From positions 14,791-78,790 of the forward strand of contig CAYXBY010000001.1 of the NCBI GenBank assembly GCA_964463325.1: a stretch of 64,000 nucleotides of DNA. The letters run 5' to 3'. A program made the position numbers and the translations under genes. How positions within the stretch are numbered: position 1 is the stretch's first letter; each line of letters starts with the position of its first letter. Source of the stretch: an uncultured Lachnospiraceae bacterium. Lineage in GTDB: Bacteria > Bacillota > Clostridia > Oscillospirales > CAG-272. The notes beneath the pieces are model-generated. The model was not told where the DNA came from and did no database searches. It worked only from the letters and a program-made list of their open reading frames with translations. This document shows positions 7,984 to 59,967 of this stretch, one piece after another.

Positions 7984-10377
7984 TTATCTCAGCTCCAGCA
8001 CCGTAACGCCGCCGTCGCCCTCGCCGTAGCGCCCTATCCGATAGGACGCCACCCGCTTATCCGAGCGCAAAAACTGCCAGAGCGCGTTTCTCAGCGCGCC
8101 GGTGCCCTTGCCGTGTATGAGATAAACAGTGTTCAGCCCGCGCAGCTGCGCGTCATCGATGTATTTGTCCACTGCCAGCCAAGCCTCCTCGCCTGTCATG
8201 CCGCGCAGGTCGATCTCGTTTTTGACCGACTTGACCGCCGCCTCCGGCTTGTATTCCGAAGCTGGCACGCGGCGCTTTTCGCGGTCGACGACTATCGTCT
8301 CGTGCTCGTCGACCAGCTTGAGGTTGGAAATGTTGGTCTTTGTCCGTGCGGCGCCGGCCTGCACCGTTAGACTGCCCGATTTATCCGGCAGACTGAGCAC
8401 GGTGGCAATGGTGCCGATGCTGCGCAAGTAGACCTGGTCACCCTTCTTGAGCGGGCGCGGCAGCACATAGCCGTCGTCCTCGGGACGCTCAACCGGGTTG
8501 AATTTGTCCTCGTTTGCCCGCAGGTGGGCGCGTATCTCACGACGGGCGCGATCCAGCTCCTCACCGGCACGCTCGCTGTCCTTGGCGCGGCGGGCGCGGT
8601 CGAGCTGCGACAGCACAAAATCTGCCGACGCCTTGGCGCTCTCGATTATCGAAACCGCCTTGGCCTGTGTTTTTTCGTATTCTGTCTCGGCGCGCGACAG
8701 TTTATCCTGTATTTTGCGCTCGGACTCTCGCTTAAAGCGCTCATATTCCTCGCGCAGGCGGGCAGCCTCATCGCGGTCACGCTCCATTGCGATGCGGCTG
8801 GCCTCCAGCTTCTCGATGACGTCCTCAAAGCGCTTATTATCAGTGCTGATGGTGAGCTGTGCGCGGTCGATGATGTCCTGCGACAGTCCCAGCCTCCGCG
8901 AGATAGCAAATGCGTTTGACTTGCCGGGGGTGCCGATGATCAGCTTGTAGGTTGGGCGCAGCGTCTCGATGTCAAACTCGCACGAGGCGTTCTCGACACC
9001 GTCCGTCTCCAGCGCATAGGCCTTGAGCTCGGCATAGTGCGTCGTGGCGGCGCAAATGGCGCCCTTCTCACGCACCGACTCGATCACTGCAACCGCCAGC
9101 GCCGCACCCTCGATTGGGTCGGTGCCAACACCCAGCTCGTCGAACAGCACCAGCGAGCGCTCGCTCAGCTGCTGCATTATGGCCACGATATTGACCATGT
9201 GCGCCGAGAAGGTGGAAAGCGACTGCTCGATGCTCTGCTCGTCGCCAATGTCGGCTAAAACATTGTCAAACATGCAAATGGAGGAATGCTCTTCCGCCGG
9301 GATGTGCAGCCCGGCCTGCGTCATCAGCGCAAAAAGACCCAGTGTTTTAAGCGTTACGGTCTTGCCGCCGGTGTTAGGGCCAGTGATGATAAGCGTGTCG
9401 TGTCCGTGACCGATGGCCACATTGATGGGCACCACCTTTTCGCGGTCTATCAGCGGATGGCGCGCACGGCGCAGCTCGAGTGAGCGGTCACCCGATATCT
9501 GCGGCTGGACGCCGCGCATGCGCAGCGACAGCTCGCCACAGGCGAAAATAAACGCCAGCTCGGTGATATTTTGATAATTCAGTCGCAGTGCCGACGCACA
9601 TCCGGCCACCTCGCCCGACAGCGCATAGAGCACCTTGTCTATCTCATGCTGCTCGGCCGCCTCCAGCTCGCGCAGCTCATTGTTGGCGTCGACAACGGCG
9701 ATAGGCTCCACAAAAAGCGTCGCGCCCGAGGACGAGGTGTCGTGCACCAGTCCCTTGACCTCGCCGCGGTATTCCTGCTTGACGGGCACAACATACCGCC
9801 CGCCGCGCTGCGTGACTATGTTCTCCTGAAGATATTTCGAATAAGCACCGCCGGTGTATTTGGACAGAATGTCCTTTATGCGGTTGTTCAGCCCCTTGAT
9901 GCGGCGGCGAACACTCGCAAGCTCAGAGCTGGCCTCGTCCGCAATAAGATCCTCGGCAATTATGGAGCGCGTGATACGATCCTCCAGCTGCCGATCAGGG
10001 ATAAGCCGCTCAAATATCTCGTCAAGCGACGTTTCAAAGCTCCGGTTGACCCGAATGTAGTCAAGCAGGCCGCGACAGGTGCGCAGCACGTTGGCCGCGT
10101 CGAGCAGCTCGCGGGCGGTCAGCGTCGCGCCCTTCTCTGCGCGGTCGCAAATGCCCTCCATGCTCTGTATCATGCCAAAGGAGGGCGTCCCCTTGACGCC
10201 AAGCAGGCGCACGGCATCGGTCGTATGCCGCTGCGAGCGCAGCACCACGCTGACATGCTCGCTCGGCTCGAGCGACAGTGCCAGCTCGCGTGCGCCGTCT
10301 GTCAGCGCACAGTCGGCCAGCAGCACGCGCACCTTATCAAATTCAAGTGTTTTTAATGTTTTCTCTGAAAAGCTCAT
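7984..10377 (-). CDS. mutS2: Endonuclease MutS2
   Basis: 797 aa with a MutS ATPase core (GPNTGGKT), a long coiled coil and a C-terminal Smr domain (IDLRGM...LIHGKGTG). Confidence 0.95.
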   Translation of the reverse strand: MSFSEKTLKTLEFDKVRVLLADCALTDGARELALSLEPSEHVSVVLRSQRHTTDAVRLLGVKGTPSFGMIQSMEGICDRAEKGATLTARELLDAANVLRTCRGLLDYIRVNRSFETSLDEIFERLIPDRQLEDRITRSIIAEDLIADEASSELASVRRRIKGLNNRIKDILSKYTGGAYSKYLQENIVTQRGGRYVVPVKQEYRGEVKGLVHDTSSSGATLFVEPIAVVDANNELRELEAAEQHEIDKVLYALSGEVAGCASALRLNYQNITELAFIFACGELSLRMRGVQPQISGDRSLELRRARHPLIDREKVVPINVAIGHGHDTLIITGPNTGGKTVTLKTLGLFALMTQAGLHIPAEEHSSICMFDNVLADIGDEQSIEQSLSTFSAHMVNIVAIMQQLSERSLVLFDELGVGTDPIEGAALAVAVIESVREKGAICAATTHYAELKAYALETDGVENASCEFDIETLRPTYKLIIGTPGKSNAFAISRRLGLSQDIIDRAQLTISTDNKRFEDVIEKLEASRIAMERDRDEAARLREEYERFKRESERKIQDKLSRAETEYEKTQAKAVSIIESAKASADFVLSQLDRARRAKDSERAGEELDRARREIRAHLRANEDKFNPVERPEDDGYVLPRPLKKGDQVYLRSIGTIATVLSLPDKSGSLTVQAGAARTKTNISNLKLVDEHETIVVDREKRRVPASEYKPEAAVKSVKNEIDLRGMTGEEAWLAVDKYIDDAQLRGLNTVYLIHGKGTGALRNALWQFLRSDKRVASYRIGRYGEGDGGVTVLELR

Positions 10378-50151: not shown

Positions 50152-51108
50152 TCAGCTCTGTGATATTGGAAATTGCGTCAGCGACGAACCGTCGAGCTCT
50201 GCCGCGTGCATATCCACCGCGCGGCGCCGACTGTCCTCGTAGGTCGAGAAATAATACACCCCGCGGTCAGCGTCCCAAGCGCCGGTGTAGATGGTGATCT
50301 CGTATTTGCCCGGCGCGACCTCGCAGCAGCCGCGCACCTGCTCGACTGAGCCTAAAATGTGAAATATCTGACATATGCCCGCGTCCGCTGTGTCGTCCGA
50401 GCGCGAATTTCCGCGCACGAAGGCCGCCCGCACAAAGCGCGACGCCGACGAGACGTCACCCGGCAGCCCCAACGCACCCATGCCGCGGCTGTAGCAGTCG
50501 AGCTCAAGCCCCGGCGCAAAGCTGCACTGCGGTTGGCGTGACGACAGCGCCATATAATTGCGCAGATTTGTCATGTGCCAGTCGAAAGGCGGGTTGTTGG
50601 TCAGCACGCCGGCGGGATCATCATAGACCTGTAGCCCCTCGCGCGTCGATTCGAGCACGATGGCGCCGCTGCGGTCGGCGATAATCCAGTGCAGCTCGGC
50701 CGCAGGATAGCGGTCACTGAAGGGCGTGCCGACGAGGCAGAGACGGTCTATCAGCGCCCGAGCCTCATCCACCGTGGCGCACTGCGACAGCACCCACGGA
50801 ATGAGCTCAAACTGCGCCACGCAGTCCTGCCCCGACTGCGCCTCGCCATACACCGCGTTTCCGACGAAATTCAGCCCCGCCATGCCAAGCCCCCGCTCAT
50901 TGACGGCGTCGTAATACAGCGGATATCCCTCCGCCACGTGCGCCATGCCGATCATGGCATAATGCTCTGCCGTCTCGCCGCCGTGACGCCACCGCAGCGG
51001 ATATCTCCGCGGCATCACGGTGACTGCCTCGCCGTATGAGAATTCATAATCCAACGTCCGCCCCATGAAAAAGTGGCCGGCCGTCCCATAGGTCACTGCT
51101 GTGCACAT
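50152..51108 (-). CDS. Choloylglycine hydrolase family protein (bile salt hydrolase / linear amide C-N hydrolase, Ntn)
   Basis: 318 aa starting MCTAVTY (nucleophile Cys2), followed by GRTLDYEF and NERGLGMAGLNF blocks typical of the family. Confidence 0.85.
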   Translation of the reverse strand: MCTAVTYGTAGHFFMGRTLDYEFSYGEAVTVMPRRYPLRWRHGGETAEHYAMIGMAHVAEGYPLYYDAVNERGLGMAGLNFVGNAVYGEAQSGQDCVAQFELIPWVLSQCATVDEARALIDRLCLVGTPFSDRYPAAELHWIIADRSGAIVLESTREGLQVYDDPAGVLTNNPPFDWHMTNLRNYMALSSRQPQCSFAPGLELDCYSRGMGALGLPGDVSSASRFVRAAFVRGNSRSDDTADAGICQIFHILGSVEQVRGCCEVAPGKYEITIYTGAWDADRGVYYFSTYEDSRRRAVDMHAAELDGSSLTQFPISQS

Positions 51109-51202: not shown

Positions 51203-52231
51203 TCACAGCCTGTCGGCTATCTCAAATATCAGCCTTTCGGTCTTTTCCCAGCCGAGGCAGGGATCGGTGATGGACTGCCCGAACACGCCGCCGTCAGTCT
51301 TTTGATTGCCGTCGACAAGATAGCTCTCTATCATGAGCCCGCGGCACAGGCGGCGGATGTCGGAATTTTGACGCATCGAGCGCAGCACGTCATGCGATAT
51401 GCGTATCTGCTCCTCGTATTTTTTGCCCGAATTCGCATGGTTGGTGTCGATTATGACCGCAGGATTTTGCAGTCCCGAGGCGGCATAGCGCTCGTTCAGC
51501 TGAAGCAGATCCTCATAATGATAATTCGAGACCGTCTTGCCGTCAGTCGTCTGGTAGCCGCGCAGGATGGCGTGCGCGAGCAGGTTACCCGTGCTCTCGA
51601 CCTCCCAGCCGCGATAGATGAAGGTGTGCGGATGCTGCGCCGCGGTGATGGCGTTCATCATGACCGAGATGTCGCCCTCCGTCGGATTCTTTAGACCGAC
51701 GGGAATGTCCAGCCCGCTGGCCGCCAACCTGTGCTGCTGATTCTCGACGCTGCGCGCGCCTACGGCGACATAGGACAGCAGATCCGAAAGATAGCGATGG
51801 TTGTCGGGGTACAGCATCTCGTCCGCGCTCGAGAGTCCAAAATCGCGCAGTGCGCTCATGTGCAGCTCGCGGATAGCGACAATGCCGCGCAGCATGTCGG
51901 GGTGACTGTTGGGGTCAGGCTGGTGCAGCATGCCCTTGTAACCATCGCCGGTGGTGCGCGGCTTGTTGGTGTAAATGCGCGGGATGATGATGAGCTTGTC
52001 CTGTACCTGCTCCGACACGCGCTTGAGACGGCTGATGTATTCCAGCACCGACTCGCTCTTGTCGGCCGAGCAGGGACCGATAACAAGTATAAATTTGTCG
52101 CTCTCACCGCAAAATACCTTTTTTATCTCTTCGTCACGTGCCCGCTTGACCGCCGCCATCTCCGCCGTCACGGGATATTGCGCCTTGATCTCCTGTGGAA
52201 TGGGCAGCTTACGATAAAATTTCATGTTCAT
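51203..52231 (-). CDS. aroF: 3-deoxy-7-phosphoheptulonate (DAHP) synthase, class I
   Basis: 342 aa containing LVIGPCSADKSE and KPRTTGDGYKGM, and similar overall to AroF/G/H-type enzymes. Confidence 0.9.
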   Translation of the reverse strand: MNMKFYRKLPIPQEIKAQYPVTAEMAAVKRARDEEIKKVFCGESDKFILVIGPCSADKSESVLEYISRLKRVSEQVQDKLIIIPRIYTNKPRTTGDGYKGMLHQPDPNSHPDMLRGIVAIRELHMSALRDFGLSSADEMLYPDNHRYLSDLLSYVAVGARSVENQQHRLAASGLDIPVGLKNPTEGDISVMMNAITAAQHPHTFIYRGWEVESTGNLLAHAILRGYQTTDGKTVSNYHYEDLLQLNERYAASGLQNPAVIIDTNHANSGKKYEEQIRISHDVLRSMRQNSDIRRLCRGLMIESYLVDGNQKTDGGVFGQSITDPCLGWEKTERLIFEIADRL

Positions 52232-52263
52232 AGCTATATTTTAACCTCTCGTGTATTGTTTTA

Positions 52264-53148
52264 TCAATTTTTTATGACCGGCTTGTCGAATTTTTCGCGC
52301 CGCTCGCTTGAGCATCGCATCATTTGACGCAGCTGTTCCCTGTCGCCGTCGACCAGCGCCTGCCGCATGCGCCCCAGCTCGAGCGAGAAGCGATCCATCT
52401 GCGCCAGCAGCGCGTCGCGGTTCCAGAGAAACAGCTCGCTCCACATCTCGTCGTTTATTTTGGCGATTCGGGTCAGGTCACGGAATGAATCTCCGGTGTA
52501 GGCCTCCAGCCCCGGCTGGTCGGTCGCGCACATGAGCGACACCGCGATGCAGTGCGTCAGCTGCGACAGGAACGCTATCATGCGGTCATGCTCCTCAACG
52601 CTCAGACGACTAATGCGGTGAAAGCCCAGCAGCACGCCCAGCTGCTCACACAGCGCTATCGCCTCGGGGGTGTTGCTCTCGGTCGGGACAACGATGTAGT
52701 TTGCACCCTGAAAAACGCTGTCGTCGCTGTGCTCAACGCCGCTCTTTTCCCTGCCCGCCATGGGATGCGCCGCGATAAATTCGACTCCCTGCGGCATCAG
52801 CTGCTGCACGCGGGCGGTTATGCTGCCCTTGACGCCGGTCACATCCGTCACCAGCGTCCCGGACGAAAAATACCCGCCGTAGTGCTCGACCCACTCTATC
52901 AGCGTGTGCGGGTAGAGCGCCAGCACCACAAGGTCAGCTGCCGCGACCACCTCGGGGTCGACCTCGGTGTAGCCCGCAGCAATAAAGCCGCCCTCGCGCG
53001 CGTACTCGATCGAGCTCTCGCCGCGCGTTATGGCCGTGACGGCAAAGCCCTGCCGCGTCAGTGCGCGGGCATAGCTGCCGCCTATCAGTCCAAGTCCAAC
53101 AATAAGAATATTCGCTTTATTATCAAGCTTTTTCAGCTTCAGTGACAT
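52264..53148 (-). CDS. tyrA: Prephenate dehydrogenase
   Basis: 294 aa with the Rossmann motif IVGLGLIGGS and the HPMAG active-site block. Confidence 0.9.
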   Translation of the reverse strand: MSLKLKKLDNKANILIVGLGLIGGSYARALTRQGFAVTAITRGESSIEYAREGGFIAAGYTEVDPEVVAAADLVVLALYPHTLIEWVEHYGGYFSSGTLVTDVTGVKGSITARVQQLMPQGVEFIAAHPMAGREKSGVEHSDDSVFQGANYIVVPTESNTPEAIALCEQLGVLLGFHRISRLSVEEHDRMIAFLSQLTHCIAVSLMCATDQPGLEAYTGDSFRDLTRIAKINDEMWSELFLWNRDALLAQMDRFSLELGRMRQALVDGDREQLRQMMRCSSERREKFDKPVIKN

Positions 53149-54363
53149 TCAATCCTCCCTCTGCACGTCGGCGCCCAGCGCCCTCAGCATGCTCCAGAAT
53201 TCCGGCAGGCTCTTGGCCACGCACTCTGCGCCCTCGATCGTCCCGCCGACGGCGCAGGCAACAACCGCCAGCGACATGGCAATGCGGTGATCGTTGTGAC
53301 TGCGCAGCACCCGACTCGGCGCGCGCACCCCGCCGTCCACATGTATCTCATTTTCGGCCACCTCGACGCGAGAACCGAAGGCTGCCAGCTCCTCGGCCAT
53401 GGCCGCGCCGCGGTCGCTCTCCTTAAAGCGCAGACGCGCCGTGTCGCGCAGCGTGACGCCGTCACACAGCGCCCCCGCCGCCATAAGAACGGGGCCGAGG
53501 TCGGGACAGTCGGCTATCGACAGCGTGCAGTGCCCACGCCCGATGCTGCCGAGGTACTCCCGCCAGACGCGATCGCCCTGACGGCCGTCGTCGCAAAGCC
53601 CAGGCATTGATATCTGGCCGCCGAGCAGCTCCAGCGCCCCAAAAAACGCCGCCGCAGACTGGTCGGTCGGCACCTCCAACGCCGAATTTGCCCGCCCGCA
53701 CTGGCTGCCGTGGATGATAAACGTCCCCGCCTGCGGCCGCTCGACGGCATAGCCAAGCTTGCGCAACGCATGCATCGTCAGCTCGATGTACGACGCGCTC
53801 TCCAGTGCCGTCGTCAGCGTAATGCGGCTGTCACCCGCCGCGTGCGGCAGTGCAAGCAGCAGCCCCGAGATAAACTGACTACTGATATTGCCCGGGATGT
53901 CAAAGCTGCCGGCGTCAAGCGGCCCGCAGACTGTGATGCTGCCCTCGCCGCGCTGCCACCTCAGCCCCGCGCCGCGGCAAATGTCCTCGTAAACCGACAG
54001 CGGGCGCTGCAGGAGCCGCCCCGCCCCGTAAAAGGTGACCGGGCGGTTGTCGAGCAATGCGAACGGCAGCAGCAGCCGCAGCGTGGTGCCGCTCTCGCCG
54101 CAATCAAGCACCGTCTCGCCCGACAGCGACTCCATCAGCGCGCCGCCGCGCACCTTAGCCGTCTCGCCGCGCTGCTCAATGTCGGCACCGAGGCGGCGCA
54201 GGCAGCGGAGCGTCGCGCGGACGTCGCAATTATCCGGCAGACCGTGAATGACGGTCTCACCGGGCGTGAATGCAGCGGCGATGAGGTAGCGATGCGCCAT
54301 GCTTTTGGAGGTCGGCAGGCGCACCTCGCCGCTCGGGACGCAGGGTGACACCGTCACCCTCAT
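53149..54363 (-). CDS. aroA: 3-phosphoshikimate 1-carboxyvinyltransferase (EPSP synthase)
   Basis: I placed the start at the ATG at 54363, which forms an ATGA overlap with the aroQ stop, giving 404 aa. It contains LPTSKSMAHR and a C-terminal NDHRIAMS. Confidence 0.92.
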   Translation of the reverse strand: MRVTVSPCVPSGEVRLPTSKSMAHRYLIAAAFTPGETVIHGLPDNCDVRATLRCLRRLGADIEQRGETAKVRGGALMESLSGETVLDCGESGTTLRLLLPFALLDNRPVTFYGAGRLLQRPLSVYEDICRGAGLRWQRGEGSITVCGPLDAGSFDIPGNISSQFISGLLLALPHAAGDSRITLTTALESASYIELTMHALRKLGYAVERPQAGTFIIHGSQCGRANSALEVPTDQSAAAFFGALELLGGQISMPGLCDDGRQGDRVWREYLGSIGRGHCTLSIADCPDLGPVLMAAGALCDGVTLRDTARLRFKESDRGAAMAEELAAFGSRVEVAENEIHVDGGVRAPSRVLRSHNDHRIAMSLAVVACAVGGTIEGAECVAKSLPEFWSMLRALGADVQRED

Positions 54364-54797
54364 GTGTTGCCTCCCTGCTCGCACAGCAGGTCAATGGCCT
54401 CGAGATAGCCGTCAAGCCCCCGCCCCGAAATGCAGGCTACGCAGGCCTCGCGGACATAGCTGACCTGTCTGAAGGCCTCACGCCGATCCACCTCGGAAAT
54501 GTGCACCTCGACAGTCGGTATACCGACTGCCTTAAGCGCGTCGAGCAGCGCGACCGAGGTGTGCGTGTAGGCCGCAGGGTTTATGACGATGCCGTCATAA
54601 ACACCGTATGCGTCCTGAATGGCATCCACCAGCGCGCCCTCGTGATTTGACTGATAAAGCGTCACCGAGACGCCGCGCTGTGCCGCATGCGCCTCGATCA
54701 TCTCGCACAGCGTCGCATAGCTCTGCCGACCGTAAATATCCGGCTCGCGAATACCTAACATATTTATATTGGGGCCATTTATGACCAAAATTTTCAT
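54360..54797 (-). CDS. aroQ: Type II 3-dehydroquinate dehydratase
   Basis: 145 aa starting MKILVINGPNINMLGIREP and containing SNHEG. Confidence 0.95.
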   Translation of the reverse strand: MKILVINGPNINMLGIREPDIYGRQSYATLCEMIEAHAAQRGVSVTLYQSNHEGALVDAIQDAYGVYDGIVINPAAYTHTSVALLDALKAVGIPTVEVHISEVDRREAFRQVSYVREACVACISGRGLDGYLEAIDLLCEQGGNT

Positions 54798-56077
54798 TAT
54801 TGTACCTCCTCCGCCTCATTTATCATGTTGAGCAGGCGTGCCGCCGTCTGCTCCGGGCTGCCCTCGACCGGCAGTGTGATGTCCGCCGCCGCGCGGTACA
54901 GCGGCAGCCGCTCGCGATATCGCGCCTCAAGCGCCGCACGATCGCAGGACAGCGGGCGATCAGGCGTCGGCTGGATGTCGGCCGGCCGACGATCGACAAA
55001 AACAACAAGTCCATTGCGCTTCAGTGCGCGAATGTTGTCGGGACGCAGCACGGCGCCGCCGCCCGTCGCAATAACGCAGCCGCTCTGCGACGAAAGCTCG
55101 GCGATCACGGCGCTCTCGGCTGCCCTGAAGGCGTCCTCACCGTGCGAGGTGATGTAGTCCCCCGCCGTGACACCGGTTCGCTCACAAAACAGACTGTCGC
55201 TGTCAAACAGGGGACGCTCCATCCGCTCGGCCAGCAGACGCCCCAGCGTGCTTTTGCCGCTGCCCGGCATGCCGACGAGCACTATGCTCTGCTTGCGCCG
55301 CAGCATTTGGCGATAGACACTGTCTGTTTTGCCGATAATGCTCTCATTGTCAAGAAACAGCGCCGCCGCCCACGCCGCCTGAGCCACCAGCATGTAGAGT
55401 CCGCCCGCCGCCGGCAGTCCGCGCTCCAGCGCACGGCAGATCAGCCGTGTGCGCAACGGGTGGTAGACGGCGTCGGCCACGCCACGCAGCGCCGGGAACT
55501 CCGCCGGGTCAACGGCCATGCCGTCCTCGTGTGGGAACATGCCCAGCGGCGTTGTATTGATCAGCACCTCGACCTCAGAGCGCTCGCGGCTCAGCGTCTC
55601 GTAGCTGATCTCGTCCTCGCCGCGTGGCGTGCGCGAGACGCGCACCACCCTTGCCGCACCCAGCGACTCGGCCACTGCCCGCGCCGTCCGCGACGTCCCG
55701 CCGGTGCCCAGTATCGCGACATAGCTGCCGCGCACAGGAATGGCGGTGCGCACGAGCAGCGCACGCATGCCGTAAAAATCAGTGTTATAGCCTATCAGAC
55801 GCCCGTCGCGACACAGCACGGTGTTGACCGCGCCGATTCGCGCCGCGGCATCGTCGATCTCGTCGAGATATGGCATGACGGTCTGCTTGTAGGGGATGGT
55901 GACGTTGATACCGCAGAAGCGCCGCGCCCTCAAAAATTCGCCCACGTCCCCCGGCTCCAGCTCACGCAGGCAGTAGCTGTAGTCGGCCAGCAGGGGGTGT
56001 ATCTCGGCCGAAAAGCTGTGCCCCAGATGCTCACCGATGCAGCCGTATTCCATTGGTGCCATTGAATTTTCGCTCAT
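54797..56077 (-). CDS. aroE/aroK: Bifunctional shikimate dehydrogenase / shikimate kinase (AroE-AroK fusion)
   Basis: 426 aa from the ATG at 56077. The N-terminal half carries AroE motifs (NVTIPYK, GAVNTV, GYNTD, GTGGTSR). The C-terminal half carries the AroK P-loop GMPGSGKST plus DSD. Confidence 0.88.
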   Translation of the reverse strand: MSENSMAPMEYGCIGEHLGHSFSAEIHPLLADYSYCLRELEPGDVGEFLRARRFCGINVTIPYKQTVMPYLDEIDDAAARIGAVNTVLCRDGRLIGYNTDFYGMRALLVRTAIPVRGSYVAILGTGGTSRTARAVAESLGAARVVRVSRTPRGEDEISYETLSRERSEVEVLINTTPLGMFPHEDGMAVDPAEFPALRGVADAVYHPLRTRLICRALERGLPAAGGLYMLVAQAAWAAALFLDNESIIGKTDSVYRQMLRRKQSIVLVGMPGSGKSTLGRLLAERMERPLFDSDSLFCERTGVTAGDYITSHGEDAFRAAESAVIAELSSQSGCVIATGGGAVLRPDNIRALKRNGLVVFVDRRPADIQPTPDRPLSCDRAALEARYRERLPLYRAAADITLPVEGSPEQTAARLLNMINEAEEVQ

Positions 56078-56087
56078 TTGTGCCACC

Positions 56088-57182
56088 TCACACCAGCGCA
56101 TCCGCACCACCGCGCATCAGCAGCAGATCGGCGACCGTCAACGCCGTCACGGCGTCGATGACCGGACAGGCTCGCGGCACGATGCAGGGGTCGTGCCGTC
56201 CCGCAATGCTCAGCTCGATATTCTCGCCGCGCACCATATCGACCGTGTGCTGCGGGCGCGAAATGGACGGCGTCGGCTTGATGGCGCAGCGGAAGACGAG
56301 CGGCATGCCGTTGGTTATCCCGCCGCCGATGCCGCCGGAACGATTGGTCGAGGTCAGAATATTTCCTTCATTAATGTAATAGGGGTCGTTTGCCACACTC
56401 CCGCGCAGGTCAGCCAGTGCAAAGCCGTCGCCAAATTCGACACCCTTTACGGCCGGGATGGAAAACAGCCCGTGCGACAGCAGGCTCTCGACCGTGTCAA
56501 ACCACGGCTCGCCCAGCCCGGCCTCAAGGCCGGTGACTACCGTCTCGGCAATGCCGCCGACGCTGTCGCCCTCGGCGCCCGCCGCCAGTATGGCCTCGCG
56601 CATGCGCTCCCACGCCACCCCCGAGAGCACCGGATGGGCGGCCTCGTGCAGCACCGCAAGCTCGTCCTCGGGGTGAAGCGCGTCAAACGAACGGTCATCC
56701 ACACCGGCGCAACGGCTGATATGGGTGCCTATCAGTATTCCCTGACGCCGCAGCGCCGAGGCGACTATCGCCCCCGCCGCCACCAGCGCCGCCGTCAACC
56801 GACCGCTGAAATGGCCGCCACCGCGGGCGTCCTCAAAGCCGTGATACTTGATGTGCGCAGGATAGTCGCAGTGGCCGGGGCGTGCGCGACCGGCTATAGC
56901 GGAATAGTCCCCGCTGTGCTGCGCGACGTTGGGTATCAGTATGCACAGCGGCGTCCCTGTTGTGTGACCGTCGTAAACGCCGCTCTCGATGACAAATTCA
57001 TCCGGCTCGCGACGTGCAGTCGCAGTCGCGTCCTGCGGCCGACGGCGGCTAAGCGCGTGCGATATCTCGGCCTCGTCAACCGGGATACCGGGCGTCAGTC
57101 CGTCCAGCACCGCCCCGACGGCACTGCCGTGGCTCTCGCCAAAAAGCGTCAGTGTCAGCATGCTTCCGTAAACATTTTTCAT
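56088..57182 (-). CDS. aroC: Chorismate synthase
   Basis: I placed the start at the ATG at 57182, which forms an ATGA overlap with the aroB stop, giving 364 aa. It contains LFGESHG and GRHDPC. Confidence 0.93.
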   Translation of the reverse strand: MKNVYGSMLTLTLFGESHGSAVGAVLDGLTPGIPVDEAEISHALSRRRPQDATATARREPDEFVIESGVYDGHTTGTPLCILIPNVAQHSGDYSAIAGRARPGHCDYPAHIKYHGFEDARGGGHFSGRLTAALVAAGAIVASALRRQGILIGTHISRCAGVDDRSFDALHPEDELAVLHEAAHPVLSGVAWERMREAILAAGAEGDSVGGIAETVVTGLEAGLGEPWFDTVESLLSHGLFSIPAVKGVEFGDGFALADLRGSVANDPYYINEGNILTSTNRSGGIGGGITNGMPLVFRCAIKPTPSISRPQHTVDMVRGENIELSIAGRHDPCIVPRACPVIDAVTALTVADLLLMRGGADALV

Positions 57183-58204
57183 GACAGTGCGATGACCTCC
57201 CCGCATTTCTCAATTATTTGATCGGCGCTCATGCGCTCAAAGCGGAAGCGCCCTATCTCGGGCAGCAGGACGGTCACTATGCCATCTCCTGCCGCCTTTT
57301 TGTCGTGCAGCATGACCTCGCGCAGCCGCTCGCGCTCACAGCGAAAGGCGGTTGGCAGGTCATAACGATGCAAAAGATGCGTCAGGCGACGCCGCACCTC
57401 GCCCTCGGTCAGCGCCAGCATGCCGAGACCGACGCACTCACCGTGCAGCAGCGGGAAAGCGTCGCCCGCGCTGAGGCTTTCAATGGCGTGACCCACCGTG
57501 TGTCCAAAATTCAGCACACGGCGCAGCCCGCCCTCGCGCTCGTCCTGCTCGACGACACCCATTTTGACGCGCAGCGCCGCCTCGATCAGCTCGACCGCAC
57601 TCATACGCCGCGTCAGATCCTCCAATCGTTCAAAGCTTTCGGGGTCAGACGTGGCGAACATTTTGATGATCTCGGCCATGCCACAGCCAAACTGCCGTCG
57701 ATCCAGCGTTTCGAGCACCTCGGGGTCGATCACCACCGCTCTCGGCTGGTAAAACGTCCCCCAGACATTTTTGTAGCCGTCGAGGTCGACCGCCACCTTG
57801 CCGCCGACCGATGAATCGACCTGCGCGAGCAGCGTTGTCGGCACGTTGTAAAAGTCGATACCGCGCATATACGTCGCCGCGGCGAAGCCGCCGAGATCGC
57901 CGATCACCCCGCCGCCGACCGCCACCAGACAATCGCCGCGGTCAAAGCTGGCCGCCAGCATGACACGAATGACCTCAAGCAGCCGCTCGGGGCATTTATT
58001 CTGCTCGCCCGGCTCGAGCGTCACAATGTGCGGCTCGGTGCACGCGCGTGCCACCGTCTCAGCGTACACACCCGGGACGCCCGAGTCTGTCAGTATCAGC
58101 ACGCGACGGTGCAGCCGCAGCAGCTCGCCGACGCGCCCCAGCGCCCCGCGTTCGACTGTTATAGGGTAGCTGCGCGCGCCTAAATTCATTGTTAATGTTG
58201 ACAT
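57179..58204 (-). CDS. aroB: 3-dehydroquinate synthase
   Basis: 341 aa with the GGGVIGDLGGF NAD site and metal-binding His residues (HTVGHAIE). Confidence 0.93.
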   Translation of the reverse strand: MSTLTMNLGARSYPITVERGALGRVGELLRLHRRVLILTDSGVPGVYAETVARACTEPHIVTLEPGEQNKCPERLLEVIRVMLAASFDRGDCLVAVGGGVIGDLGGFAAATYMRGIDFYNVPTTLLAQVDSSVGGKVAVDLDGYKNVWGTFYQPRAVVIDPEVLETLDRRQFGCGMAEIIKMFATSDPESFERLEDLTRRMSAVELIEAALRVKMGVVEQDEREGGLRRVLNFGHTVGHAIESLSAGDAFPLLHGECVGLGMLALTEGEVRRRLTHLLHRYDLPTAFRCERERLREVMLHDKKAAGDGIVTVLLPEIGRFRFERMSADQIIEKCGEVIALS

Positions 58205-59307
58205 TTTCTATCCTCCCGCCTATCGAGCAGCCGCTCACCGGCAAAGCTGCCCAGCACGCGCACGCTGCTGCATACGCCACTAAGCTCCGCCAGCATGCTC
58301 TGTCCCGCCTCAGTTGCGAGGCAGCCCTCGCCCTCAGCATAAAAATAATATTCCCAGTTTTCAACGCCTGTCGGGTGACTTTTGAGGCATTTGAGGTTGT
58401 AATCATGCCGGCTGATCACCGAAATGGCGTCGCCAAGCGAGCCGGGGTTGTTTTTGCAGCTGAAAAGCAGCACAAAGTGCCCGTCCGTCGGCTTTATCTC
58501 GCAGGGCGTGGGAGTGAAGACCGCAAAGCGCGTCGTGTTTGTCTTTTGCTCGTTAATATCGTTCTCCAGCACGCAAAGGCCGTACAGCTCGGCCGTCTCG
58601 CGCGCCGCGATGACCGCTACATCCCGTCGCTCGCCCTCCGCGACTGCTTTAGCCGCGACTGCGGTGTTGACAGCATCGGTCTGTATCCAGCCCTGCCTCT
58701 TGAGATAGGGGCGGCACTGCGCCAGCGCCTGCGGGTGACTGACCACCTCGCGTATCTCGCCTATCCCAACGCCCGGTTTGGCCAGCAGGCACTGCGAAAG
58801 CGGCAGGTCGTATATCCCGCTGATGGACAACGGACCGCGGTAGGACAGATCCATGACCTGCCCCACATCGCCGGCATAGCTGTTCTCGATGGGCAGCACG
58901 GCGCAGCTGCATTCCCCACTCTCGACTCGGCGGTAAGCCGTGACAAAGTCCGGGCAAGGCGCCACGCAGCAGTCACCGAATATGCGCAGGGCGGCCACGT
59001 GTGCAAATGCGCCCTCCACCCCGCTGTACGCCACGCTGACACCGCTGTTGAGCAGCCGCTGATAGCTCTTTGACTGCGTCATGAGCTCGCACAAAAAGCT
59101 TTTGTAATACGGACGGTAGGCCTGCGGCACAAGCGCAGAATTGCGCTCGAGCAGCTGTGCCTCACGCTCTCTATCCTCTATCGGGAGCCCGTGCTCCTCC
59201 TTATATGCTGCGATGACCGCCGCCGCCTGCATCCGCTCGGCGAAAAGCGCCGCCATTTCACGGTCGACGCGGTCTATGGTCTGCCGCGCCTGCTGCAATC
59301 CGTCCAT
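58192..59307 (-). CDS. pheA: Bifunctional chorismate mutase / prephenate dehydratase (P-protein)
   Basis: I placed the start at the ATG at 59307 (GAGGAG SD); the track begins at a GTG six codons upstream. The product is 371 aa with a CM domain, a PDT domain (TTRF) and a C-terminal ACT domain. Confidence 0.9.
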   Translation of the reverse strand: MDGLQQARQTIDRVDREMAALFAERMQAAAVIAAYKEEHGLPIEDREREAQLLERNSALVPQAYRPYYKSFLCELMTQSKSYQRLLNSGVSVAYSGVEGAFAHVAALRIFGDCCVAPCPDFVTAYRRVESGECSCAVLPIENSYAGDVGQVMDLSYRGPLSISGIYDLPLSQCLLAKPGVGIGEIREVVSHPQALAQCRPYLKRQGWIQTDAVNTAVAAKAVAEGERRDVAVIAARETAELYGLCVLENDINEQKTNTTRFAVFTPTPCEIKPTDGHFVLLFSCKNNPGSLGDAISVISRHDYNLKCLKSHPTGVENWEYYFYAEGEGCLATEAGQSMLAELSGVCSSVRVLGSFAGERLLDRREDRKCQH

Positions 59308-59322
59308 ATGTCTCCTCACTTT

Positions 59323-59370
59323 CACAAAATAAGACCCGCGAGAGCATCCTATGGGATCCCTGCGGGTCTT
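59323..59370 (-). terminator. Attenuator terminator in the pheA-aro operon leader
   Basis: On the minus strand, AAGACCCGC-AGGG-ATCC [CAUA] GGAT-CTCT-GCGGGTCTT forms about 17 bp with two bulges and is followed by ATTTTGTG. It ends 16 nt before the pheA ATG. Confidence 0.75.
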
Positions 59371-59435
59371 CTATTTCAAATATCCGATACGAATTCCGTG
59401 TCTCCACGGCAAAACACCATCAGAGACGCCTTCGA

Positions 59436-59504
59436 TCACGAACAGATAACAGAAGAACCGCTTTGATGGTAATAATAAAATCGGGAGATAATAACCTTCA
59501 TCAT
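59436..59504 (-). CDS. Candidate leader peptide MMKVIISRFYYYHQSGSSVICS (Phe-Tyr-Tyr-Tyr regulatory codons)
   Basis: I read this by hand on the minus strand; it is too short for the ORF track. It starts ATGATG, preceded by GAGG, and carries TTT TAT TAT TAC at 59480-59469 and a TGA at 59438-59436. It lies between a consensus promoter and the attenuator terminator. Confidence 0.6.
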   Translation of the reverse strand: MMKVIISRFYYYHQSGSSVICS

Positions 59505-59540
59505 GGCCTCTGCCCTGTCCTTTCTCAAAATTCTAGCGCT

Positions 59541-59569
59541 ATTATACCTCTTTTTCGACGTCTTGTCAA
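59541..59569 (-). promoter_or_regulatory. Consensus sigma-A promoter of the aromatic amino acid operon
   Basis: On the minus strand: TTGACA (59569-59564), exactly 17 nt, TATAAT (59546-59541). Confidence 0.75.
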
Positions 59570-59623
59570 GAGCCTATTTGTCTATTTTTGCGCACCGACG
59601 CGCGGCATTATGTGGTCCATATT

Positions 59624-59659
59624 CACAAAAGCCCCGACGAATATAGCATCCGTCGGAGC
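59624..59659 (-). terminator. Terminator of the 96-aa gene
   Basis: On the minus strand, a GCTCCGACG/CGTCGGGGC stem is followed by TTTTGTG. It lies 18 nt after the stop at 59677 and insulates the aro promoter. Confidence 0.7.
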
Positions 59660-59676
59660 TCATTTGATGTATCAGC

Positions 59677-59967
59677 TTATTTCAGCGCCATCTCCAGCCA
59701 TATCAGACCCATTGAGAAGGCATCCTGCAGGCCGGATTTTGAGCCCTGCTTGATGATCTTGGTCGGGTCGCTCGAGTCGATGACCTGGATGAGTATCTTA
59801 TCCGGCACCTTGTGTCCGTTTTCCTCTTTGTAAGACATTATCTCCATTATTAATATGCACTTTTCGGACATATCGCCGTAGCATATGGTGTTCCCCTCGC
59901 GAACCAGGGGCTTGCCTTTATATTCAAGATACTTGCCGCTGACCACGCGGCGTGCTTCTTCACTCAT
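59677..59967 (-). CDS. Hypothetical 96-aa cytoplasmic protein
   Basis: GGAGG lies 8 nt upstream of the ATG and the gene has its own terminator. I recognise no family. Confidence 0.6.
   Translation of the reverse strand: MSEEARRVVSGKYLEYKGKPLVREGNTICYGDMSEKCILIMEIMSYKEENGHKVPDKILIQVIDSSDPTKIIKQGSKSGLQDAFSMGLIWLEMALK

Follow-up and report, generated by a model that had tools for sequence, protein, structure and literature searches.

A putative leader-peptide attenuator with a Phe/Tyr codon run upstream of a pheA-aro-tyrA operon in uncultured Clostridia

The 64-kb stretch of contig CAYXBY010000001.1 analyzed here (the window), from an uncultured Lachnospiraceae bacterium, carries an operon for aromatic amino-acid synthesis preceded by a short leader region that probably functions as a ribosome-mediated transcription attenuator. 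Pfam assignments identify the operon genes as pheA (CM_2 and PDT domains, that is, chorismate mutase and prephenate dehydratase), aroB, aroC, an aroE-aroK fusion, aroQ, aroA, tyrA and a DAHP synthase gene, in open reading frames (ORFs) that are tightly packed or overlapping. By the same assignments there are no trp genes in the operon. The attenuator elements all lie on the minus strand and comprise a promoter, a short leader ORF containing a Phe-Tyr-Tyr-Tyr codon run, an intrinsic terminator and an antiterminator that shares a strand with it (Table 1). Since the operon supplies enzymes for Phe and Tyr and includes no trp genes, and since the leader has no Trp codon, the content of the operon fits the codon run.

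Table 1. Coordinates of the leader elements and of the regulated operon in the window
Feature	Position	Strand	Description
Promoter, sigma-70-type	59541..59569	-	TTGACA 59569-59564, 17-nt spacer, TATAAT 59546-59541
P1, 5' strand	59507..59520	-	5' untranslated segment GGACAGGGCAGAGG containing the leader Shine-Dalgarno motif; pairs with 59459-59440
Leader ORF	59436..59504	-	22 codons and stop; ATG 59504, TGA 59438-59436; peptide MMKVIISRFYYYHQSGSSVICS
Regulatory codons	59469..59480	-	UUU UAU UAU UAC (Phe9, Tyr10, Tyr11, Tyr12), read from the sequence; run kept in relatives
Hairpin A, 5' strand	59464..59471	-	UACCAUCA, codons Tyr12-His13-Gln14; pairs with UGAUGGUG
R2, antiterminator 5' strand	59448..59461	-	GCGGUUCUUCUGUU, codons 15-19; pairs with 59375-59362
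Hairpin A, 3' strand	59415..59422	-	UGAUGGUG, 3' of the stop codon; pairs with UACCAUCA
R3, antiterminator 3' strand	59362..59375	-	AAUAGAAGACCCGC; 59370-59362 doubles as the terminator 5' arm
Intrinsic terminator	59323..59370	-	hairpin 59370-59331 and U-tract AUUUUGUG at 59330-59323
Regulated operon	51203..59317	-	Pfam assignments; includes the pheA Shine-Dalgarno motif
pheA	59307-58192	-	CM_2 and PDT
DAHP synthase gene	52231-51203	-	last operon gene

All 12 consensus positions of the promoter are matched, and it ranked first among the promoter-like sites in a scan of 10.5 kb. Boxes resembling TTGACA and TATAAT are seen at the equivalent relative position in related genomes. Transcription would start near 59534, roughly 30 nucleotides (nt) 5' of the 21-22-codon ORF. 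The preceding gene is small (a 96-amino-acid ORF at 59967-59677, minus strand) and is ended by a strong intrinsic terminator of its own (59630-59661, minus strand; -25.1 kcal/mol, z = -4.6, followed by UUUUGU). This implies that the attenuator promoter is insulated and starts a separate transcription unit.

The Shine-Dalgarno (SD) motif of the leader ORF is GAGG (59510-59507, minus strand). The first AUG follows it after 2 nt and the second (59501) after 5 nt, and this spacing makes the second AUG the likelier start; the reading frame is identical in either case. Directly 5' of the Phe/Tyr run is a CGA codon (59483-59481), a rare Arg codon that accounts for 11 of the 255 Arg codons in 10 window genes. 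CGA also precedes the run in most related leaders, giving a near-invariant nucleotide string, CGAUUUUAUUA, and its conservation may reflect either selection for slow decoding or a constraint on the RNA. A six-frame scan of the whole window finds five runs of at least four aromatic codons, of which only that of the leader belongs to a short ORF placed directly before pheA.

The terminator hairpin has 17 base pairs interrupted by two bulges, with a folding energy of -25.4 kcal/mol (z = -4.45) that none of 200 shuffled sequences equaled. It was overlooked by a simple terminator scan because it is bulged. Both the SD motif (59317-59312) and the start codon of pheA are 3' of it. The alternative helix, between R2 and R3, is formed by 12 Watson-Crick pairs, one G-U pair and one U-C mismatch (-16.8 kcal/mol); slightly extended, it reaches -19.2 kcal/mol, and one in 100 shuffled ORF segments pairs equally well. 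As both helices use positions 59370-59362, which make up the complete outer 5' arm of the terminator, the two structures are mutually exclusive. An earlier note, made by reading the sequence alone, had described the consensus promoter, the 22-codon ORF preceded by GAGG, the match between the F-Y-Y-Y run and the end products of an operon without trp genes (with no Trp codon in the leader), the roughly 17-base-pair hairpin before pheA, the 14-position complementarity between R2 and R3, and the incompatibility of terminator and antiterminator. All of these were recovered at the coordinates of Table 1, the pairing count exactly.

We scanned GTDB genomes with the PheA protein and analyzed the best 80 pheA loci. 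These are all from Oscillospiraceae, Acutalibacteraceae, Ruminococcaceae or 'Eubacteriales' metagenome-assembled genomes (MAGs), with PheA identities of 48-84%. In the closest 20 of these best 80 loci, pheA is directly preceded by an RFYYYH[QH]xGLS leader, and we refer to them as the FYYY subfamily; the core is invariant among the 20, and the N- and C-termini vary. A related leader is present at about 37 more distant loci (for example MFGYVSYRFYYFKTDCLYACKA, MFVKGYRFYYYYTGADVLCNRKAEQ and MAGFYFYYFMNADCLYVD). At most loci of this wider family a class I/II aminotransferase gene immediately precedes pheA (the Pfam gene order at locus L061 is aminotransferase-pheA-aroB-aroC), and the Phe/Tyr-rich short ORF is found before the aminotransferase gene, about 1350 nt upstream of pheA. 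The start codon is GTG or TTG in 11 wider-family leaders, and one leader, L074 (…FRFFYYKKGLSV…), bridges the wider family and the FYYY subfamily. Scanning metagenomes with the core pattern CGATTYTAYTAYTAYCAYCNNNGCGG returned 43 matches, 36 of them with a pheA-like ORF just 3'; six further matches have the same leader on a contig that is cut off or that has no ORF within the 200 nt scanned. One match, L086, was set aside as a chance pattern, with no in-frame upstream ATG and no terminator found. GTDB genomes and gut metagenomes thus yielded 56 unique homologous leaders in total, all fronting the same operon, either before pheA directly or before the aminotransferase gene that precedes pheA.

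The in-frame Phe/Tyr codon run is kept in all 56 leaders, as RFYYY, RFYYF and similar, so that the conservation of a short aromatic-rich ORF for which the earlier note had suggested looking is indeed found. The N- and C-terminal parts of the leaders vary in sequence and length and the frame is retained: in 51 of the 56, the aromatic run is spanned in frame 0 by an ORF of 10-45 codons that has a start codon and an SD-like motif, compared with 4 for frame 1 and none for frame 2. Tyr and Phe make up 16.7% and 12.4%, respectively, of the residues of the 52 distinct peptides that these leaders encode, and Trp is absent from all 52. A terminator was detected in every one of 49 automatically scanned leaders, at -18 to -31 kcal/mol, and in 10 of 11 leaders added later, at -16 to -28 kcal/mol. 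For the eleventh, L071, the automated procedure picked the antiterminator, and inspection of the sequence located the real terminator; the L071 antiterminator, CGGACUGUCUGUGC...ACAGACAGCCCG at about 1695-1767, is itself a hairpin of -24.2 kcal/mol located 5' of the real terminator.

The metagenomic leader L115 (about 8263-8564, minus strand of its locus) keeps the RFYYYHHCGLS core and has a wholly different terminator sequence, AAGGCUUGC...GCAAGUCUUUU. The GGCCUU of its ORF is still complementary to the new terminator 5' arm. No pheA start was found within 200 nt downstream of it. Two sets of candidates were discarded among the related loci. Apparent F/W-rich leaders directly before pheA in L024, L032, L058 and L075 are false, since they fall within the 3'-terminal part of the preceding aminotransferase gene, and a second small ORF beginning at the AUG within CUGAUGG was dropped, its SD motif not being consistent and its lengths being inconsistent.

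Covariation was assessed in two alignments, A1 (the window plus 24 FYYY-subfamily members) and A2 (37 wider-family members). The outer stem of the terminator has 92% of cells paired and four pairs with double changes in A1, and the terminator has 97.7% of cells paired and double changes at five of seven pairs in A2. The observed terminator covariation score was reached by none of 500 shuffles, and RNAalifold independently predicts the terminator stem of the wider family. For the antiterminator, 82.8% of cells are paired in A1, compared with 32-64% when the partner strand is slid, and four pairs show double changes; the corresponding values in A2 are 83.8%, 21-46% and five pairs. As an example of compensation, UUCUUCU/AGAAGA in the window is replaced by UCUUUC/GAAAG in relatives (U-A to C-G and C-G to U-A), with CUGUC/GACAG, CCUUCU/AGGAGG and CGUUUUAU/AUAAGGGG found in the wider family. 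An alignment-free comparison agrees, the cognate R2:R3 pairings averaging -16.6 kcal/mol against -13.8 kcal/mol for non-cognate ones, with the cognate mean reached in 0 of 5000 permutations. Both helices therefore keep their pairing through compensatory changes, which bears out the covariation check proposed in the earlier note. The geometry is also constrained. Counted from the base that opens the first aromatic codon, R2 begins after 16-20 nt in 35 of 43 leaders (range 9-28), which is just past the leading edge of a ribosome stalled at that codon.

These comparisons make it extremely improbable that the window holds a chance juxtaposition of an ordinary promoter, a long 5' untranslated region (UTR) and a stable hairpin (one that protects mRNA, for example) with no switching. 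The weak U-tract of the window would suit such a coincidence, as would the first full-length fold, which is barely more stable than shuffles (z = -1.78). Yet the 56 unique leaders conserve every part, compensatory changes occur in both alternative helices, the terminators of relatives carry U-runs of at least five, and matches to the metagenome pattern are almost exclusively associated with pheA.

The regulatory structures listed in the earlier note are all present, but the list omitted two candidate anti-antiterminators, which we term P1 and hairpin A. P1 pairs the 5'UTR segment that contains the leader SD motif with the 3' part of the ORF. It is part of the full-length minimum-free-energy (MFE) structure, and its 3' strand overlaps R2. 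Among 43 leaders, the cognate pairing of 5'UTR with ORF 3' part averages -17.4 kcal/mol against -14.4 kcal/mol for non-cognate combinations, and none of 5000 permutations attained the cognate average. By eye, P1 recurs with other sequences elsewhere in the family, as UUGAACAG:CUGUUCAA in L054 and AAAUACAGG:CCUGUAUUU in L040.

Hairpin A (-19.2 kcal/mol, z = -2.5) encloses R2 and sequesters part of it, and is the local MFE structure in all 14 unique FYYY-subfamily leaders. Its basal strands, UACCAUCA and UGAUGGU, are invariant in A1 and the basal helix is without covariation; its inner helix covaries by eye (CGGUC:GACUG in some leaders, CGGCC:GGCUG in others). Hairpin A, whose 5' strand would be occupied by a stalled ribosome, may be the equivalent of a pause (1:2) hairpin. 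The wider family (L047, L037, L023, L068, L054 and others) has a small hairpin across the leader stop codon. By eye this hairpin too shows covariation, with AAAGCUU/AAGCUUU, AAAGCC/GGCUUU, GGCGGA/UCCGCC and AAGCGG/CCGCUU among its stems. It is nested within the antiterminator and would melt under a terminating ribosome.

Attenuators of the trpL and hisL type combine a short ORF containing codons for the end product with mutually exclusive antiterminator and terminator structures, and terminate by default. We consider it likely, from the arrangement of the sequence elements and the modeled folds, that the leader described here is a ribosome-mediated transcription attenuator of this trpL/pheL/hisL type controlling the shikimate and Phe/Tyr operon. 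The classical trpL/pheL logic put forward in the earlier note thus gains support from the conserved ORF, the compensatory pairing and the folding. The attenuator would sense charged tRNA-Phe and tRNA-Tyr, and may respond to either amino acid.

In the free full-length leader, the combination of P1 and terminator has an energy of -67.7 kcal/mol, compared with -59.5 kcal/mol for the best antiterminator state, which indicates that termination is the default. With no ribosome, or once a ribosome has run through and been released, R2 would be held by P1 or by hairpin A. R3 would then be available to pair with R4, the terminator would form, and RNA polymerase would stop short of pheA, at about 59325. 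Under a shortage of Phe-tRNA or Tyr-tRNA, a ribosome translating the leader would stall with Phe9, Tyr10 or Tyr11 in its A site. In this position the stalled ribosome would cover UACCAUCA and separate the 5'UTR from R2, preventing both P1 and hairpin A. Its leading edge would end just before R2, leaving R2 to pair with R3 as soon as R3 has been made. R4 would then be without a partner and the polymerase would read into pheA-aro-tyrA.

Folds of the stalled state were computed using only the RNA downstream of the ribosome, on the assumption that no helix can enclose the ribosome. With the ribosome stalled on Phe9, Tyr10 or Tyr11, the MFE structure until the terminator 3' arm has been made is the antiterminator (about -45.7 kcal/mol). 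Once that arm is present, antiterminator and terminator are nearly isoenergetic, at -49.1 and -49.5 kcal/mol, respectively. The outcome would thus be kinetic, and the structure formed first should persist.

Several observations weigh against this interpretation of the leader. The check suggested in the earlier note, refolding with the leader ORF masked, was divided in its outcome: in ViennaRNA, masking the ribosome footprint left the fold unswitched, because P1 closes around the masked stretch, whereas the downstream-only fold did put the antiterminator first. The disruption of P1 by a stalled ribosome would accordingly be a matter of sterics. A stall on Tyr12 occludes the first 3-5 nt of R2 (GCG is lost), weakening the antiterminator. 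The earlier note had attributed termination to coverage of R2 by a ribosome at the stop codon. Such a ribosome does cover the 3' part of R2, but not the whole segment, so this explanation is incomplete, and in some relatives the stop is more than 20 nt beyond R2. Because part of R2 is left free, refolding of an anti-antiterminator behind the ribosome has to be invoked, which would presumably yield termination. For a substantial minority of leaders, P1 does not outperform shuffled sequences. Covariation of the antiterminator is real but modest, because its strands are highly conserved, and the A2 shuffle control for both-side changes was not extreme (61 of 500). Finally, the window U-tract AUUUUGUG is imperfect, and all of the relatives are uncultured MAGs or metagenome contigs.

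In a possible but doubtful variant of the mechanism, the ribosome would serve mainly as a steric divider, parting R2 from the 5'UTR/SD anti-antiterminator while stalled on the Phe/Tyr codons, and from the terminator arm after it has passed R2. The SD helix would in addition shut out late ribosomes, the subfamily-specific UACCAUCA/UGAUGGU hairpin would act in pausing or synchronization, and one leader would integrate Phe and Tyr in the control of the whole common pathway and both branches.

The Rfam families were searched with cmscan, at the gathering threshold for the window and 20 related loci and at E <= 10 for the region 59200-59750. At the gathering threshold, the only Rfam match in the window is an S10 ribosomal-protein leader located elsewhere, and the 20 related loci match tRNA only, with no leader family. 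No T-box was matched in the window or the 20 related loci at the gathering threshold, nor in 59200-59750 at E <= 10, and neither Phe_leader (the E. coli pheL-pheA attenuator, which we take to be RF01859) nor the Leu/phe leader RF01743 was matched in 59200-59750 at E <= 10. The sole match in this region was a sub-threshold one to His_leader (RF00514), which scored 19.4 bits (gathering score 49; E = 0.91) owing to the terminator and the ACCAUCA...GAUGGU stem. The leader is consequently neither a T-box nor a member of a known Rfam leader family, Trp_leader included, at either threshold, in line with the absence of a T-box match that the earlier note required.

In Firmicutes, genes for aromatic amino-acid synthesis are typically under the control of T-box leaders or TRAP. 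This general pattern favors a different view of the switch, in which terminator and antiterminator are real and are set by a trans-acting factor (a protein of the TRAP or PyrR type, or a small-molecule or tRNA ligand), the ORF being incidental. The same view could draw on the leader core CGAUUUUAUUAUUACCAUCA...GCGG, which is invariant even at synonymous positions and so indicates constraint at the RNA level, and on the invariant UACCAUCA/UGAUGGU pair, whose role is putative. The invariance of the core, however, is accounted for by the overlap of the ORF with R2 and the strands of hairpin A. There is no T-box or riboswitch match even at E <= 10, and no TRAP-like spaced (G/U)AG array was noticed on reading the sequence, a formal search for one not having been made. 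Frame, start codon and SD motif are kept specifically for the aromatic frame (51 of 56 leaders, against 4 and 0 for the other two), and the one feature that highly divergent leaders share is a Phe/Tyr codon run 16-20 nt before R2. We therefore think control by a trans-acting factor improbable.

The conservation of the peptide raises the further question of whether the ORF encodes a small protein with a function in trans or a nascent arrest peptide, either of which could coexist with attenuation. RFYY is conserved as amino acids across very divergent leaders and is preceded by the rare CGA Arg codon, and there is precedent in peTrpL, a leader peptide of Sinorhizobium with documented functions in trans (PMC7298713). 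Against this, the conserved non-aromatic residues map to pairing strands, HQSGLS corresponding to CCAUCA plus R2 and TDCL to ACGGACUGCCUG, and the Arg is missing from L040, L056, L068 and L072. Ligand-induced arrest at high Phe or Tyr would, moreover, turn biosynthesis on when it is unneeded. On balance, a peptide function is very improbable, and less probable than a trans-acting factor.

The nearest functional counterpart of the leader is E. coli pheL-pheA, in which a short ORF with end-product codons precedes mutually exclusive antiterminator and terminator structures and termination is the default (PMC11802643). The two systems share this logic, as well as a regulated pheA that encodes a chorismate mutase-prephenate dehydratase fusion, but the window leader has no sequence or structure similarity to pheL (no Rfam match at E <= 10). 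Whereas pheL has seven Phe codons and regulates pheA alone, the window leader has one Phe and three Tyr codons and precedes the whole shikimate pathway together with tyrA. The window leader also departs from both pheL and trpL in that the 5' strand of its antiterminator is inside the ORF, and in that one of its candidate anti-antiterminators is formed by the 5'UTR and SD motif and not by the regulatory codons.

A mixed Phe/Tyr leader has been described in Corynebacterium glutamicum, where, as summarized in PMC11802643, the aroF operon is preceded by aroR, which encodes a Phe-Tyr-Phe leader peptide (Neshat et al. 2014). On that summary, the likeness is one of ribosome-mediated attenuation of shikimate-pathway genes through a mixed Phe/Tyr leader peptide; the differences are that aroR is actinobacterial and unrelated in sequence, and that its response is reported to be to Phe and not to Tyr. 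As Tyr codons predominate in the window leader and tyrA is in its operon, a response to Tyr would be expected of it. In Lactococcus lactis, the Leu/phe leader RF01743 is a leader-peptide motif before Phe or Leu biosynthesis genes (PMC2864571). It resembles the window leader in being a Firmicutes leader-peptide motif upstream of Phe (or Leu) genes, but it is confined to Lactococcus, has no Tyr component, and is not matched by the window or the 20 related loci. In Acholeplasma, uORFC-13-1 before aroF is an upstream ORF with one or more Phe codons adjoining an intrinsic terminator and has been proposed as an attenuator (PMC8632094). Like the window leader it is directly 5' of an intrinsic terminator before a shikimate-pathway gene; it differs in belonging to the Mollicutes, in preceding aroF, in its motif, and in that its codons come from a U run encoding at least one Phe.

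Among Firmicutes more broadly, his leader-peptide attenuators have been predicted in the B. cereus group, Peptostreptococcaceae and Erysipelotrichales (PMC9413887), and ilv leader-peptide attenuators have been shown in S. aureus and Listeria (PMC5794164, PMC5864092). These share phylum and mechanism with the window leader, but sense His or Leu/Ile/Val, occur in other lineages and are unrelated in sequence. Ribosome-mediated attenuation is thus not foreign to the Firmicutes, and the rarity that the earlier note ascribed to it there was overstated in view of the his, ilv and leu/phe leaders. Its suggestion that the Phe/Tyr family itself had not been described does appear to hold. We found no description of a clostridial Phe/Tyr leader in the full-text literature, although Panina 2003 or Vitreschak 2004 might hold an earlier mention. 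The family appears to be undescribed and uncatalogued, its underlying mechanism being already known.

No principle is overturned by the Phe/Tyr leader family. It adds a well-supported family of probable leader-peptide attenuators to the Clostridia, in Oscillospiraceae, Acutalibacteraceae and Ruminococcaceae, which are abundant in the gut and rumen. Aromatic amino-acid synthesis in this lineage would accordingly be under translation-coupled attenuation in place of T-box or TRAP control, and the family would be the second natural case, after C. glutamicum aroR, in which two amino acids are read by one leader. The 56-member alignment provides a basis for an Rfam-type model, and the leader could offer a compact Phe/Tyr-responsive switch for engineering anaerobes that are hard to manipulate.

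Some further features of the operon and its surroundings deserve mention. The aroE-aroK fusion (54797-56110, minus strand) joins a shikimate dehydrogenase N-terminal domain and shikimate kinase in one ORF of 437 amino acids. At the junction of tyrA and the DAHP synthase gene there is a promoter-like TTGATA-18-TAAAAT (10 of 12 consensus positions; 52238-52267, minus strand), which, judged on its sequence, may serve the last operon gene as an internal promoter. The gene directly 3' of the operon (50152-51108, minus strand) belongs to the choloylglycine (bile-salt) hydrolase family, which fits a gut-dwelling organism. The S10 leader found by the Rfam search is the S10-Clostridia ribosomal-protein leader RF03136 (34067-34141, minus strand; 35.6 bits against a gathering score of 35.1), and this match implies an S10 ribosomal-protein operon downstream of it on the minus strand.

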